From Mayamaea pseudoterrestris (taxonomy: Eukaryota): a DNA stretch of 64,000 nucleotides. Made by a program: the position numbers and the translations under genes. The number at the start of each line of letters is the position of its first letter. Within the stretch, counting starts at the first letter, position 1. The stretch is taken from the NCBI GenBank assembly GCA_027923505.1, contig BROI01000016.1:62001-126000 (forward strand). Direction: 5' to 3'. The notes below the pieces were generated by a model. That model saw nothing but the letters and a program-made list of their open reading frames with translations. It was not told the DNA's origin and searched no databases. Below are positions 38,767 through 52,863 of this stretch, one piece after another.

Positions 38767-39132
38767 CGTTTTCACACTGGCACTCGTTTCATACATAACC
38801 CCTTAGGCTTCGTTTTCACTGGCACTCGTTTCGTACATAACCCATTTAGCCTTCGTTTTCACTGGCACTCGTTTCGTGCTTAACCCCTTCAGGCTTCGTT
38901 TTCACTGGAACTCGTTTCATCATATAACCCCTTGGGCTTCGTTTTCACTGGCACTCGTTTCATATATAACCCCTTGGGTTTCGTTTTCACTGGCACTCGT
39001 TTCGTACTTAACCCCTTTAGGCTTCGTTTTCACTGGCACTCGTTTCTTACATAACCCCATTAGCCTTCGTTTTCACTGGCACTCGTTTCGTGCTTAACCC
39101 CTTAGGCTTCGTTTTCACTGGCACTCGTTTCA
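38767..39132. repeat. Minisatellite, 42-43-bp unit, 9 copies
   Basis: CTTCGTTTTCACTGGCACTCGTTTC plus a variable TAACCC-containing segment. Anchors at 38779, 38821, 38864, 38907, 38950, 38992, 39035, 39078 and 39120. Confidence 0.95.
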
Positions 39133-40311
39133 TACTATGGCCCGCTCCGATCAACCATCCACTTCGCACACATTATTCGATCTTTCGGTTCATTCATTGT
39201 AACACCACCATGGCCATGCCTCCTCCAAGTAGCAGCATCGTGCTTTGGACAGCTCTCACTCCATCCTCGCAGTCTATCGTGGCAGTACTGGATCCAAGCA
39301 GTATTGATAATGGAGGCAGTCTTCGTGTAGACCGGCCCTCACTCCGTTTGAAAAGTCGAGATGTTGGATGTTTGATGCAGTAGTAAACCTGGCTCTAGCG
39401 GAGCTGCTGAAAGATTACTGGAAATGATTAACGGTTGGAAATATGGATGGGTCTTTGACTGGCGTGTCGCTTCGAGAGTCGAGAGGACTGCCTGCCTGCA
39501 TGGCTGCTGACAATTGACAATTCGCCAGCAACATGCGCTAACGCTGAATATTAAGGCCACAATACATTTAGTGCCTCACGAAAGACGATCGCAAGAGCCT
39601 GGCGGAAATCGACAAGTCGCCAAAGGCAAGCGTAGTGACGTTGTCTTCTTCAAACGGACGGACTGCGCGGCATCGCGGCAGATTGATACGTCCAAATGCC
39701 TACATGATGCTTCCAATCGTCGCGCCAACGACAAATCTGGGCCTGGATTATAATGTGTCCATTGCAGTGGACAGAAAATGTCTTGCGACTGGATTCTTTT
39801 GAGCTCGAGCCATTGGCATCATGTCCCTGTCCCTCGCCGACCTAGCCGCATTGTCGGATTGAAGATAACAAGTGGCGCTTGGTCTGTCAGACTCGTAGTA
39901 TGTGGCAAGCCGAGTCATCCGATGGCTCTCATTGCTTTCCAGAACAATAACGAACCGACGGCTACATGTTTCAAGAAAAATCACTTATGGCTGATGAAGA
40001 TGGTTGATGGCTACGAGTGTATTTGTGACGAGCATTATTCCGGCCTTTTCGTCGTCTCGGTGAGCGGTGAGCATGCAAACATCCAACAGCTAGCACACGC
40101 CTGTATCCGCTCAATTGTTGAAATGTTTGTTGAGGTATAAAAGATTGCCGCAAAGGAGCGCGATGGTGAAGTTGCTCGCTTGATACTTGAGCGTATCTTG
40201 GCAGCAACTCATCGGACAACCTGACGCGGCAATCGATCGTGAACACACATCCCGTAATACAATATGCTGTTAGTTATAGTATACTGTTTTGTACTGTGCA
40301 GCTAATCTAGT

Positions 40312-42905: not shown

Positions 42906-43798
42906 TCCGCACAGCTGTCTCGGAGCAACGACTACAACCATACAGTTGTGTCTTCAAATTTGGTCAAACCCACCTAGAGCCGGCGATAATCTGAGAATGA
43001 CCTCGCATGCCAGGGCTTTCTGATGAGCTGCGCATAGCGCGAGCCTGACGAGACTGGGAAATTACCCTACATAACGTCCAAGACGTGTTTCCGTCCAGCT
43101 TTTCTTTTCTGCGAGCAGTGTGTTGCATTTGAACAGAACGTGACAATTTATAACAGTATAACAGTCAATAGATTAGTGAGTAGAATTATACCAGATGATT
43201 AATAGAGGGTCGTTAGTGACCGGCAACCCAATAGAATGATGCAAGCATTTCGCATTTGCACCTCGACTGTCGCGACGCGTCATACCATTCCACGTTCCAC
43301 AGGAGCGTCCGGTAAAATGACTTTTCGCCAAAAGTGTCGCACTGGCACTCATCATTCCGTTGACGAGACACTAAATCCGTTGGAAAGCGGCTGGCGTGGC
43401 GCGCCGGCACACCCAGCTGTTGCGCGAAGGCTAAATTCTTCTATCAGCACTTCGCTATAAGAACTTTGCTTAATCAGCACATCGCTATCAGAACTTTACT
43501 TTATCAGCAAAGTTCTATCAGAACTTTGCTTTATCAGCAGAATGCTATCTGTGACTGTACGTGAAACAGTACGAATCGTTAGTATGGCCTTCGACGACGC
43601 TCTTTGCCGCTTGCTGCTCGTGCATCCTTTACGTACAGGCACCACCATAATAAGAAGCTGAAGAAGAGCGCTGCTCTTTATTTAGCAATCAAAGTAGACT
43701 AATTAACATATGACGATTCGATCTGTCCAGTTGGTTTGCTCGCGCGGGCACTGTGGATCCCGCGACAGCACGATTTATTTATGTTCATGGAGCATCAG

Positions 43799-44009
43799 TG
43801 TTGAGCATGGATGAGAACCCAAACCGAAGCGGCAGCGGTGACGTCACGAAGACGGTCACGTTTAAGTAAGCGCGGTAAGCGGCAACCGAAGGAGTGGATC
43901 GAGGACGATCACTTCTTGGAGAAAATAAGTAAAGTGGTTTTATTGACTCTGTTCTGCTTAATCATTAGTGTCGCTTCAAGGGCGCGCAAGATATATTCTA
44001 GATCCAACA
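43799..44009 (+). repeat. 5' LTR
   Basis: Direct repeat of 48807-49017. Confidence 0.97.
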
Positions 44010-44036
44010 TTTTCTCCAAGAAGGGAGTGAAAAGAC

Positions 44037-47000
44037 ATGTCTTCGACGAGCAATACTCCGACGACAGGAGCGGCGTCGAGCGGTGGAGGTGCGCCTCCCG
44101 CTCCGCCAGCAAGCGAAGGAAACCGACGCAACCGTCATTATCGTCGTGGGAATCGTGCTGGGAATCGTTCCGGGAATCAAGGCAATGGTAACAGACTCAA
44201 CGGACCGAGTCGTGCGCCGAATGGAAATTTCCAAGGAAGCGAGCCGACGCTCGCTGGATTCATCTTCGACTACAACGGTTCGCGCGATCCCGATGGATTC
44301 ATCCGCACGACGAACGAGATCATCACTTTCGTTGGGCGCTCCTACAAGAAATATACCAAGGAGCTGCTCAAGGGCATGCGCAACGTGGAACTGGAGATTC
44401 CTGACGAGCCTGCGCGTCCAACGAAGGATGCCGACACGACGGACTCGGACTGGTCCATAATGCTCGAGGAATACAAGGCCGACAAGAAGGAGCATGTCGA
44501 GCGCGTGCGTGTGTACTCCGACTTCCTCGCTGGTCTCTACGCCGTGTTGTATGGACAATGCACGGAGCGTATGAAGGATCGTGTCAAGTCGCACGCCAAG
44601 TTCCGAGACGCCGAGGAGGACACGGACGGAATTAAGTTGCTGGCGATTATCAAGGAGATCTCGCATACGTACGAAGGGCGCTGCAAACTTGTGGATCAAG
44701 TCGTGGACATTCAAGCTGAGTTGTTCGGACGTACTCAAGGAGCGCGCGAAAGCCTGCAGAAATATTACGAAAGCATGGTCACGCTCGCAGACGTGGCGAA
44801 GGCGGTTGGCGTCACGATGCACAACGAGATCGTGGCATTGAACATTGCCAAGGATGACAATCGTAACAAGGCGAACAAGGAGGATATCAAGGCCGCCGAA
44901 GAGCTCGAGCTTGCGATGCTTTTCGTGCGTGGCGCAACGGGCGAATACGCTGGGTATTGCAAGCACTTGCGCAACTGCTACCTCGACGGGCACGACAACT
45001 TCCCGTTGACGATCCACGATGCATACAACATCATGCAGCGTCGTGAGCATGCGGATGGAGAAGCCACGTTGCCAACGAACGAGGGCGTGGCGTTTCACAC
45101 GACTGGTACAGCGCGTGACCCTCCTAGATGCTGGACCTGCCAACAGGTTGGTCATGTGCAGCGAGACTGTCCTACGAGAACGGAGTCTACGGAGAGTGCG
45201 CCGGCTGCAGAGGCTAGCGGGGCGCAGCACTTCACGCTGGGTAGCGAGGAAGATAGCGATGACGACGACGAGGTCGGATACATGTTCGCGCAGCCGCCGA
45301 AGGTGAACATCTCGAAGAAGGCTGTGCTCTTGGACAATCAGTCGACAGTGGATCTGTTCTGCAACGCCAAGATGCTGACGAACATTCGCCCGGTGCCAAC
45401 GTGGATGGTGATCAAGTGCAACGCTGGTACAGTAAGGACGAACATGATGGGCGACCTGGAGGGCTACGGTCCGGTGTGGTGGTATCCGCAGGGACTGGCG
45501 AACATTTTGAGTTTGGCGCAAGTCCGAAAGAAGTTTACCGTGGAGTATCTCATGCACGGCGTGGAGCGTCCAATGTTTGTCGTGGAGAAGCCGGACGGTA
45601 AGCAGCGCGAGTTTGTCGAGACTGACTCTGGGCTGTATGTTTGCGAGAGCTTTTCGAAGGGCAAGCGCGGTGATGTCAAGGATGGAGTGGCGATGTTGAC
45701 TACGGTAGACGATAACCGTACTAACTACACCAATGATGACTATTTACGCGCTGTTAGAGCTAGGGAACTGCAAATCAAAATTGGACGGCCAAGCCTCAAG
45801 GATTACCTGCGTATCGTTACTAGCAATCAGTTGCCGAACTGTCCTGTGACGAAAGCCGACATCCTGGCTGCTGAGCACATCTTTGGACCAGATGTTGGCT
45901 CGTTAAAAGGAAAGACGACGCGTCGCGCGTCGCATCTGGTGAAGCCAGCGATTGTTGAGCAACTTCCACCGGCTATCATGAGTCGCTATCGAGACGTTAC
46001 TCTTTGTGCAGACATCATGTATATCAATAAGGTCCCTATGTTGGTGACGTTCTCCCGCAGCATTCGTTTTGCTACGGTCGAGGTGATTCAAAACCGTACG
46101 CTTCCGGTTATGTTGAAGGCAATCGAGTCTGTGTTGAAGATTTACGCACGCGGTGGGTTCCGTGTCGTCGCGGCTCTGATGGATGGGGAGTTTGCTCCCA
46201 TGCTGGGCGCGTTGGCTGATCTCGGAGTAGCGCTCAATGCGACGTCTGAGGATGAGCACGTTGGCGAAATCGAACGTTTTATCCGTGTCGTGAAGGAACG
46301 GGTGCGAGCGACATACAACACGTTGCCGTTTAAGCACGTGCCAGCACGCTTGGTTATCGAAATGACGAAGTCTGCCGTGTTTTGGTTGAATGCGTTTCCG
46401 CACGAGCGTGGCATTTCGAAGGATCTCAGTCCACGCACCATTGTGACTGGTCAGACAGTTGACTTTAATCGGCATTGCAAGTATGAATTCGGTCAGTATG
46501 TGCAAACGCATGAGTCGCACAGCAATGACATGCAGGCGCGCACGATTGGTGCGCTGGCTCTGCGCCCGACTGGTAATGTGCAGGGCGGGTTTTATTTCCT
46601 CAGTTTGTCTTCGGGGAAAATTCTGAATCGTGGCCACGCTACGCCTTTGCCCATGCCTGATGATGTCATTGAACGCGTGCACCGTCTCGCTCGTCAACAG
46701 AAGGCTAATCCGGGCATCGTGTTCATGGACCGCCACCGTGTTGCGGAGGCTGCTGAGCCCGTCATGTGGCACGATGATGACGACGCGGATGATGATGACT
46801 CTGATTACGATGACGACGCTTCTCGCGGCGACGACGACTCTGCCGGCGGAAGCGAAGGAGTGAATGCGACCGATGACGATGACAGCGACGACGACGCTGG
46901 TGCTGACGGCGCAATCGAAGGAGTGCCGGGCGATGAGGCTGGTGATGGTGAGGCCATTGACGATGAACGTGACGACGCGCCGGCCGTGGATGATGGCGAA

Positions 47001-48877
47001 ATTGAAGGAGTGCCCGATGAAGGCGAAATTGAAGGAGTGCCAGCTGCTGCAGACGAAGAGGATTTCGATGCGCGCTATGGCCCACGCACTGGTCGGTATG
47101 GCCTGCGTGCACGCAGACCTCGATCGTTCGCTCATTTGTTCACGCTCGACGCTGCAGAGGAAGTGTCGGAGCCACTCGTCACGGCACAGATGAACATGCG
47201 ACAAGGTTTAAAGGCTTTTGGCGATGCTGGAGTGGAGGCAGTGCGCAAGGAAATGCAGCAGCTACACGACAGGCACGTCATGAAGGCAGTCCCCCAGTGC
47301 ACTCTGACTCCGCAGCAGCGCAAGGACGCGCTGGCGTATTTGATGTTTCTCAAGCGCAAGCGATGCGGGACTGTGAAGGGACGCGGATGCGCAGATGGAC
47401 GCAAGCAACGCGCATACACTGCAAAGGAAGACGCAGCATCTCCAACGATAGCGACAGAGGCCATATTTCTGACGGCTATCATTGACGCTATGGAAGGGCG
47501 CGAGGTTGCTGTGGTCGATGTACCGGGCGCTTTCATGCAAGCGGAAATGGATGAGTTGGTGCACGTTCGTTTCACTGGAAAGATGGTGGAGCTACTGTTG
47601 GAAATTGATCGCGAGATGTACGAGCCTTGCGTCACAATGGAGAATGGCGAGAAAGTCATGTACGTCGAATTACTCATGGCGCTTTATGGTACGCTTCGCG
47701 CAGCGCGACTATTCTGGGAGAAGTTGTCTGCAAAATTGCTTGAGTGGGGCTTTGAGAAGAACCCGTACGATCCGTGTGTGTGTAACAAGATTGTCAATGG
47801 AAAGCAAATCACCGTGGGATGGCACGTGGACGATTTGAAGATTTCACACGTCGACGTGAGCGTAGTGGATGAGTTCATCGCGCAGATGGATGAGGAGTTC
47901 GGCAAGGAGACTCCCATGAATAAGTCACGTGGAAAAGTGCACGACTACCTCGGCATGGTATTGGACTATACTAAGCCTGGAGAAGTAGCAATCAACATGA
48001 TTGACTATGTGAAGAACATCCTTCATCATGCGCCGGACGACATGGATGGAACGGCAGCTACTCCGGCCGCCAGTCACTTGTTTCAGATCTCGGAAAATCC
48101 AGTCATGTTGAGCGAAACAAAGAAGCAGATTTTTGTGACGATTGTGATGCAGTGTCTGTATCTGAGTCAGCGAGCGCGACCGGATATTCGCACAGCGATT
48201 TCTTTCTTGAGCACGAGGCTGCAGCAGCCTGACGAAGACGACTATAAGAAGGCTGCAAGAGTGATTAAATATTTTTGGGAAGCGTGGATATGGTGTTGAC
48301 GCTGAAGGCGGACCAGTCCGGGATAGTCCAGTGGTGGGTGGATGCGTCGTACGCGGTACACCCAGACATGAAGGGTCACACTGGTGGAACAATGACACTT
48401 GGTCAAGGATCAGTGTACAGTACGTCGGCTAAACAGAAGTTGGTAACAAGAAGCTCGACGGAGAGTGAGGTCGTGGGAGTTCATGATGTGCTACCGCAGT
48501 TGCTGTGGAGGGATATTTTTCAGGGGGGTTTGGGGGCAGACGTGTATCAAGACAATATGAGTTCAATGCTGTTGGAAAAGAATGGCAGAAGCTCAAGTAC
48601 AAAGCGCACGCGACACATGAATGTTCGGTACTTCTTTGTGAAGGATCGCGTGGCTGCTGGTGAAGTCAACATTGAGCATTGCCCGACCGGAGACATGGTC
48701 GCGGATTTCTTTACGAAACCATTGCAGGGAGCCCAGTTTGGAAAGCTCCGCAACCTGGTTATGAATCTGGCCTCGAGCAGTAAGTACTACTCGGACCAAA
48801 GGAGTGTGTTGAGCATGGATGAGAACCCAAACCGAAGCGGCAGCGGTGACGTCACGAAGACGGTCACGTTTAAGTAA
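44037..48877 (+). CDS. Copia Gag-Pol polyprotein, split by a frameshift at ~48270 before RNase H
   Basis: CCHC knuckle CWTCQQVGHVQRDC; protease LLDNQST; integrase ADIMY..MDGEF..EIERFIR; RT VDVPGAF..WHVDDL; RNase H WVDAS..SSTESE..YQDN..ADFFTK in ORF 48275-48877, which ends inside the 3' LTR. Confidence 0.93.
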
Positions 48878-49017
48878 GCGCGGTAAGCGGCAACCGAAGG
48901 AGTGGATCGAGGACGATCACTTCTTGGAGAAAATAAGTAAAGTGGTTTTATTGACTCTGTTCTGCTTAATCATTAGTGTCGCTTCAAGGGCGCGCAAGAT
49001 ATATTCTAGATCCAACA
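48807..49017 (+). repeat. 3' LTR
   Basis: Direct repeat of the 5' LTR, preceded by a short purine tract AAAGGAGTG. Confidence 0.97.
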
Positions 49018-49712
49018 ATCAGTTCTGCTGTCGCAGCAAACTCGTCGTACTTTTCATAGGGAATCATCATTATAACACCCAGTACAAGGCTCAAGCAAGC
49101 TTCTTGTCATGGCAAATACAAACATCCATCTTTAGCAGCAATCAGTATGGCTAGCCAGTGCTTGTCGATGGTGCCATGGTCGTTTTCGTCGTCGTCAAAG
49201 TCGGTTGGTGGCAGTTGTACAATCATCAACAAGACATAAGTAAAAAACAGCTGATTTGTTGCTAGCAACGAATCACAATCAACAAGAATGTCAAATGTGC
49301 AATCAATCTTTTTCAAGAGTGTACTTAGACAAAAACCGTTATCAGCAAACTGCTATCAGCACATTGCTGACTAAGTAAATCGCTATCAGCAAAGTGCTGA
49401 CTAAGTAAATCGCTATCAGCAAACAGCTGACTAAGTAAATTACTGATAAGCCCATTGGCGATCCGTCGCCGCGCAAGCATAGCCTGGCTATGCTCGCGCG
49501 CATTTTCGCCAATCAAATCTCATCCACGACTGACAGCTGACCCGGTGCGACATTTTTCGTCGAAAAAGTCTTTTTACCGGAAGCTCCAGTGCATACTCGC
49601 CGCGAAATGAATCGACTGTTCAACTCGCTGCGAAGATAATGGACTGCATTGGTCTTCGGTTTCATAAATCACGCAATCGAGTATTGTGCAGCCTCAATTA
49701 ATCGCTTCGACC

Positions 49713-52641: not shown

Positions 52642-52863
52642 GTGCCAAATTTGTCAGAGTACACTCTGACCTAGTGCCAATAACTTTGATTTTCAACGGC
52701 TGTCAGTTGTACACTCCGGAGTACAGTGCCAAAAACTTTGATTTTCAACGGCTGTCAGCGCTACACTCTGAACCAGTGTGCCAATAACTTTGATTCTCAA
52801 CGGCTATCGATAGTACACTTCGTGTCACAGTGCCAAAAACTTTGATTTTCAACGGCTATCGAT
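52642..52863. repeat. Minisatellite, 50-52-bp unit, 4 copies
   Basis: TACACT-N7-9-AGTG(TG)CCAAWAACTTTGATTYTCAACGGCT. Anchors at 52660, 52710, 52762 and 52814. Confidence 0.9.

Follow-up and report, generated by a model that had tools for sequence, protein, structure and literature searches.

How does a Ty1/copia-type retrotransposon begin reverse transcription when the sequence behind its 5' long terminal repeat (LTR) offers no TGG-type site for a tRNA primer? The question is raised by an element at positions 43799-49017 of the 64,000-nucleotide stretch of Mayamaea pseudoterrestris DNA analyzed here (contig BROI01000016.1; hereafter the window), for which a first-pass annotation had suggested priming from the element's own 5' end. 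The comparisons described below lead us to consider it probable that this diatom copia element primes reverse transcription itself, in the style of the fission yeast element Tf1.

Anatomy and classification of the element

A direct-repeat scan returned an identical pair of 212-nt copies spaced 5,008 nt apart, which trimming to TG...CA reduced to LTRs of 211 nt (this and all features below are on the forward strand). The 5' LTR (43799-44009; TGTTG...CAACA) agrees with the 3' LTR (48807-49017) at 211 of 211 positions, and the element is bordered on its left (43794-43798) and right (49018-49022) by the same five bases, ATCAG, as a target-site duplication. Positions 48798-48806, directly ahead of the 3' LTR, hold the polypurine tract AAAGGAG followed by TG; AGGAGTG ahead of TGTTG is also seen in this region of relatives. 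The window holds a single copy of the element. Two tandem-repeat arrays elsewhere in the window, at 38775-39149 (period of about 43 nt) and 52674-52860 (about 52 nt), are unrelated to it.

The internal region carries a gag-pol frame of 1,420 amino acids (44037-48299), identified from the open reading frame list, Pfam, and an integrase fold. Pfam places a CCHC zinc knuckle of gag at 45126-45173, which was also the only match of a sequence search against the PDB, and an RVT_2 reverse transcriptase of copia type at 47361-48032 (PF07727; E value of 2.9e-16; residues 1109-1332). Over the 380 residues preceding the reverse transcriptase, Pfam gave no integrase match. A structure model of residues 560-940 (mean pLDDT, 78.7) matched PDB entries of retroviral integrases (top E value, 5.4e-8; probability, 1.00), putting an integrase-like region within 45714-46856. 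Since this match lies ahead of the reverse transcriptase, the gene order is that of copia elements. With its integrase ahead of an RVT_2 reverse transcriptase, the element is thus Tf1-like in its proposed working but stands outside the Tf1/sushi clade of Ty3/gypsy elements.

Pfam gave no credible match over the stretches where protease, integrase, and RNase H would lie; the protease and RNase H regions are conserved among relatives. Around the expected protease site (approximately 45320-45360; residues ~430-440), relatives keep LLDNQST, with L431 and D433 invariant, and this region shows no obvious D-T/S-G motif and no Pfam protease match. Between integrase and reverse transcriptase runs an acidic, D/E-rich linker (46750-47110) with an internal 63-nt repeat (46874-46936 versus 46958-47020; 75% identical); other copies are shorter in this linker by 3 bases at 46883 and by 6 bases at 46938. 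Near the 3' end, a frame break at 48270-48299, which relatives do not have, separates the reverse transcriptase from an RNase H-like tail. That conserved C-terminal part of pol lies in a second frame (48275-48877), which is present in the open reading frame list, has no Pfam match, and aligns to the C termini of the relatives' polyproteins. The pol frame stops 71 nt inside the 3' LTR (48807-48877).

The nearest named protein comes from Mayamaea pseudoterrestris itself (99% identity over the reverse transcriptase part), and further named matches are from Nitzschia; these matches support a diatom as the host. One relative with 71% identity, protein P0019, carries the label of an archaeal (Nitrososphaerota) metagenome-assembled genome, which most likely reflects eukaryotic contamination of the bin. 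A scan of viral_contigs with the polyprotein found no relative.

State of the window copy

The first-pass annotation had called the element young. Its 100% identical LTRs agree with that description, but the pol frame of the window copy breaks near 48277, between the reverse transcriptase and RNase H, a frameshift that other copies lack. In an alignment of 20 polyproteins, the relatives' pol reads continuously across this junction, and contigs from two runs (X2 and X3) carry one extra base behind 48277. Because neither the relatives nor these contigs show the break, it is, as far as these sequences tell, either private to the window copy or an assembly error. If the frameshift is real, this copy would depend for its mobility on proteins from other copies. 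In a further run, X1, which covers the flanks as well, the internal parts of the element are about twenty-fold deeper than the flanks (depth not being equal to copy number), and loose ends at both LTR edges lead to other sequence. Both observations are consistent with a multicopy family.

The LTR is complementary to the sequence that abuts it

The absence of a TGG-type primer site after the 5' LTR was borne out: there is no TGG in 44009-44030. The best match within the LTR to the reverse complement of 44005-44036 is instead 43912-43926, which pairs with 44009-44023 at 15 of 15 positions. This is the perfect 15-nt reverse complement that the annotation had pointed to; 15 nt is indeed the longest match, and the two further pairs that it reported past one mismatch are present as well, the mismatch being 43911/44024. 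We refer to 43912-43926 as the 5' arm, or proposed self-primer, and to 44009-44023, whose first base is the last base of the LTR, as the 3' arm, or primer-binding site; the rest of R plus U5 forms an 82-nt loop between them (43927-44008). In the lowest-energy RNA fold of 43911-44040, the 15-bp duplex is the closing helix.

As a chance control, we recorded the longest perfect inverted repeat with a loop of 30 to 320 nt in the 680 nt ahead of gag. Repeats of at least 14 nt occur in 21 of 38 such regions (37 loci plus the window). The longest repeat did not exceed 11 nt in any of 111 coding blocks from the same loci; 189 of 190 shuffles likewise stayed at or below 11 nt, one reached 13 nt, and none reached 14 nt.

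The duplex recurs at the same two anchors in related elements

Relatives were recruited with the alignment of 20 polyproteins, yielding 79 loci on metagenome contigs with 33 to 69% identity to the window protein over the best segment. The duplex is found at the same two anchors in 44 of these 79 loci. It is perfect and 14 to 17 nt long in 43 of them; the remaining one, L026, has 13 Watson-Crick and two G-U pairs (14 of 14 pairs by count, with the 15th pair and the split between pair types read by eye). L040 and L075 share the layout, spoiled by an indel or by mismatches. At L067, part of the leader is on the contig and the duplex was not found; at L060, the binding site is present on a contig that lacks the LTR part. 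The contigs of the other 31 loci lack the border between LTR and leader, 29 being without the gag start and two beginning within gag. Five pairs of 12 to 13 nt (in L006, L030, L066, and twice in L057) lie away from this border and were left out. The contigs of L027 and L041 stop 11 to 16 nt past the arm, as RNA 3' ends might; the L027 contig, however, closes into a cycle through an overlap of 15 nt and is uninformative about RNA ends.

Including the window, the set comprises 36 distinct arm sequences, of which 15 are 14 nt, 14 are 15 nt, six are 16 nt, and one is 17 nt long. The loop measures 82 to 126 nt in most relatives and 150 nt in one; seven loci (L016, L033, L042, L051, L053, and L076; L040 is not counted) have short loops of 45 to 53 nt. 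The gag ATG follows 1 to 30 nt past the arm in most relatives, and no second candidate binding site was seen.

The anchoring is strict on both sides. The first base of the 3' arm is the last base of the LTR in 20 of the 36 elements and the next base in the other 16, and the 5' arm is preceded by a conserved (G)CTCA. Between these fixed points, the arm sequences themselves diverge: their cores have 13% G+C, two cores differ on average at 7.1 of 13 positions, and each of arm positions 2 to 13 is occupied by two to four types of Watson-Crick pair. When arms are placed in register from the LTR end and counted by script, all 36 pair with their own site at 13 of 13 positions, compared with a mean of 5.9 of 13 (standard deviation, 1.8) for the sites of other elements; since arms were found as the longest inverted repeats, these pair counts are partly circular, whereas the two anchors were not selected for. 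In MAFFT alignments A3 (32 rows) and A4 (19 rows), gaps broke up the AT-rich arms, and both were left out of the counts. Compensated changes are also seen between close pairs of elements, e.g., L002/L003, L007/L017, and window/L033. The covariation between binding site and LTR that the first-pass annotation had proposed looking for in related copia families is therefore present, with 36 distinct arm pairs that all match themselves, and the self-priming that it had put forward gains support from an anchored, covarying duplex across the family. Given 36 different AT-rich sites, each of which follows the LTR of its own element, no conserved host tRNA or tRNA half, judged from these sequences, can be their common primer.

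A conserved fold spans R and U5

Twelve relatives with loops of 93 to 105 nt were used for a structure test (alignment A5: L002, L003, L004, L005, L014, L020, L022, L030, L038, L045, L055, and L057). Their consensus consists of five helices. The first is the primer/site helix, in which all 13 pairs show changes on both sides. Two bases past the primer follows a 5-bp hairpin, then a long stem, a helix of two pairs (columns 57-58 against 101-102 of the alignment), and lastly a bulged terminal hairpin. Compensatory changes occur in all 34 pairs of the fold among the 12 relatives, and 89.1% of cells are paired, versus 63.9% in shuffles (none of 500 reaching the observed value) and 35 to 54% with slid partners; the structure was derived from the same 12 sequences on which it was evaluated and is thus somewhat favored in these comparisons. 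The window RNA has a bulged hairpin of like shape at 43968-43987 in the fold of 43911-44040 and is without the small hairpin after the primer. Tf1, for its part, reportedly requires a complex 5' structure and a stem-loop resembling the U5-IR (studies cited in PMC4600332).

Predicted transcription start

For the duplex to form from the RNA 5' end, transcription would have to begin close to the 5' arm. The motif TCAH(+1)W has been proposed as a diatom initiator-like element, partly from mapped starts of FCP genes (Kadono et al., PMC4686930). TCACT at 43909-43913 fits this motif, and the first transcribed base is therefore predicted to be C 43912, which would make 43799-43911 the U3 region. The first-pass annotation had recognized the TCAC motif and taken its A, 43911, as the start; the motif stands, while the diatom form of it predicts the next base. 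TCAHW is found at the border between LTR and arm in 28 of the 36 distinct arms: in 22 of them, TCA stands immediately ahead of the first paired base and the motif fits, and in six the first paired base is the A of TCA itself. The remaining eight borders have CA (six), TA (one), or AT (one).

Further upstream, the AT-rich TTTAAGTAA noted about 50 nt before the motif is present in the window but is not conserved in relatives, among which no TATA-like box is conserved at a fixed upstream distance. Many relatives have one or more copies of (G/A)AATAG 10 to 40 nt upstream of the LTR arm, a motif that the window copy does not have. The palindrome TGACGTCA, which we take to be a CRE/bZIP-like site, occurs at 43839-43846 in the putative U3 and again at 48847-48854; a similar TGACGTCA lies upstream of the arm in L035.

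Contigs were compared from four of five sequencing runs, none of which is recorded as RNA, and they bear on the extent of R in different ways. In X2, a run of unrecorded kind, two contigs (43922-47464 and 47529-48945) are unbroken over both borders between LTR and internal region, and their outer ends fall within the LTRs, at 43922 and 48945. These ends resemble a genomic RNA of the form R-U5...U3-R, which we take as a weak hint. A contig of X3 spans 43817-43994, that is, U3 to most of U5, in one piece; if this run was RNA, the contig would mean read-through transcription or a long R and would not fit a short one.

Proposed mechanism and alternatives

Fitted to the observed anatomy, anchoring, covariation, and R-U5 fold, and with start site, cleavage, and order of strand transfers taken by analogy from Tf1, the cycle would run as follows. 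Transcription would begin at TCA|C in the 5' LTR, with 43912 as the predicted +1. The RNA segment 43912-43926 would fold back over the 82-nt R-U5 loop onto 44009-44023, abutting the LTR, and the element's RNase H would cut the RNA at the duplex's inner end. The resulting 14- to 15-nt RNA would then use its 3' OH to prime minus-strand DNA synthesis across U5 and R. Transferred to the R of the 3' LTR, which holds a second copy of the primer sequence (48920-48934), the minus strand would have the primer sequence restored. Finally, plus-strand DNA started from the polypurine tract would copy the still-attached RNA primer, and the binding site would be rewritten in each cycle. Such rewriting would explain why the match between arms is perfect nearly everywhere. 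We know of no copia-type enzyme demonstrated to cleave an RNA duplex by its RNase H.

Could the duplex have another meaning? The conventional expectation would be a host tRNA, or a tRNA half of the kind used by Drosophila copia and the plant lineages Osser or Bianca, that primes from 44010 onward, the LTR match being incidental: tRNA-Met or tRNA halves serve most copia elements (Neumann et al., PMC6317226). Yet the site lacks TGG, takes 36 forms that always track the element's own LTR, has arm cores of low G+C content, and pairs over lengths that the chance controls never reached. Rfam gave no match in 43700-44150 at E values up to 1, and a tRNA gene scan of the window and of 25 of the 79 loci found none. 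We regard a host primer as extremely improbable. A different possibility is that the duplex is a structural RNA that serves packaging, dimerization, translation control, or closing of the leader, while another primer starts the minus strand. Retroviral and Ty1 leaders contain long-range pairings with such roles, and the conserved five-helix fold could suit packaging as well as priming. What speaks against a purely structural role is the position of the 3' arm, whose first base is the final LTR base or the one after it in 36 of 36 elements: the minus-strand start sets the LTR end, so the primer must sit on this arm. The arm's only conserved partner is the element's own LTR arm, and the short distance to the gag ATG in most relatives shows no second candidate site. 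This reading is accordingly quite unlikely in our assessment.

The primer might also be encoded by the element but act in trans, coming from a second packaged RNA, from the 3' LTR copy of the arm, or from a short promoter-proximal transcript. A full-length RNA would carry the arm sequence twice if the arm lies within R, and priming in cis and in trans are indistinguishable from sequence alone. Use of the 3' copy, however, would require a cut of the template between U3 and R, and the conserved fold that joins 5' arm and binding site within one molecule favors action in cis. Priming in trans thus appears unlikely, and self-priming from the folded-back 5' end is the reading that we prefer.

Relation to known self-priming elements

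The proposed arrangement has close counterparts in Tf1 and Tf2 of Schizosaccharomyces pombe and Tj1 of S. japonicus, in which the binding site likewise abuts the 5' LTR, dispenses with a tRNA, and has its complement at the very start of the element's own transcript, a structured R-U5 lying in between. The Tf1 duplex involves the 11 bases at the RNA 5' end, directly behind which (between bases 11 and 12) RNase H cleaves (PMC7175516, PMC4600332). These elements belong to Ty3/gypsy, whereas the diatom element is of copia type, with integrase followed by an RVT_2 reverse transcriptase; its duplex, at 14 to 17 bp, is longer than the 11 of Tf1 and very AT-rich, and its self-priming is predicted from sequence only.

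The first-pass annotation was not aware of self-priming in Ty1/copia elements, but it has already been predicted there: Neumann et al. (PMC6317226) propose it from sequence for the plant TAR lineage, which includes Houba and Osr-1, and cite an earlier proposal for these two elements. Like the diatom element, TAR elements are of copia type and their self-priming is a prediction from sequence; they differ in being elements of land plants. Among diatoms, the CoDi elements (CoDiI and CoDiII; Blackbeard and Surcouf) have been described as Ty1/copia-like, with the order PR-IN-RT-RH, and as occurring in environmental samples too (PMC2806351). They share the diatom host with the element studied here, and a term search of the main text of that paper found no mention of primer-binding sites or tRNA priming. 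The fungal copia element GalEa offers another parallel, as its description (PMC5445492) reports no tRNA-type site but a "Conserved Hairpin Site" where one would be expected. Both are thus copia elements with a conserved structure in place of a tRNA-type binding site; the GalEa site, however, is described there as a local palindrome with no complementary LTR sequence, while the partner of the diatom site lies 45 to 150 nt upstream, in the LTR. A full-text literature search returned no report of self-priming for diatom copia elements. Self-priming in Ty1/copia as such has thus been predicted before, and its diatom case appears to be new.

A possible footprint of the cap

One further regularity concerns the base directly 3' of the binding site. 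It is C in 23 of the 36 distinct elements, versus an expected 25.5% (binomial P = 1.4e-6, uncorrected for relatedness). At this position (44024), the window copy carries G, while the contigs of all four runs compared have C. The base ahead of the LTR arm is A in 29 of 36 elements, C in six, and T in one; because it is always one of these three, a C past the site cannot pair with any genome-encoded base at that place. It is tempting to speculate that each cycle renews the binding site from the RNA's capped 5' end and that the C is the footprint left by reverse transcriptase on the G of the cap, although we hold this idea to be doubtful. If it is true, the transcription start could be read to single-base precision from the outer end of the duplex. 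A large copia radiation specific to diatoms would then also have self-priming as its ancestral and general mode, and this mode would either be an ancient trait that the plant TAR lineage shares or have been invented independently for a third time.

Implications for diatom copia elements

The analysis extends self-priming, which is proven only in gypsy elements of the Tf1 type, to what is probably its use by a widespread clade of diatom copia elements, with comparative support that is unusually clean: 36 independent arm pairs together with a covarying R-U5 fold. Repeat annotation pipelines that demand a tRNA-type binding site, of which the LTRdigest filter described for Cyclotella cryptica is an example (PMC7466962), would drop such elements, and diatom copia elements may be undercounted as a result. 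For the elements themselves, a primer of their own would bring independence from host tRNA pools, and it would presumably also let them escape small RNAs that target tRNA-type binding sites.
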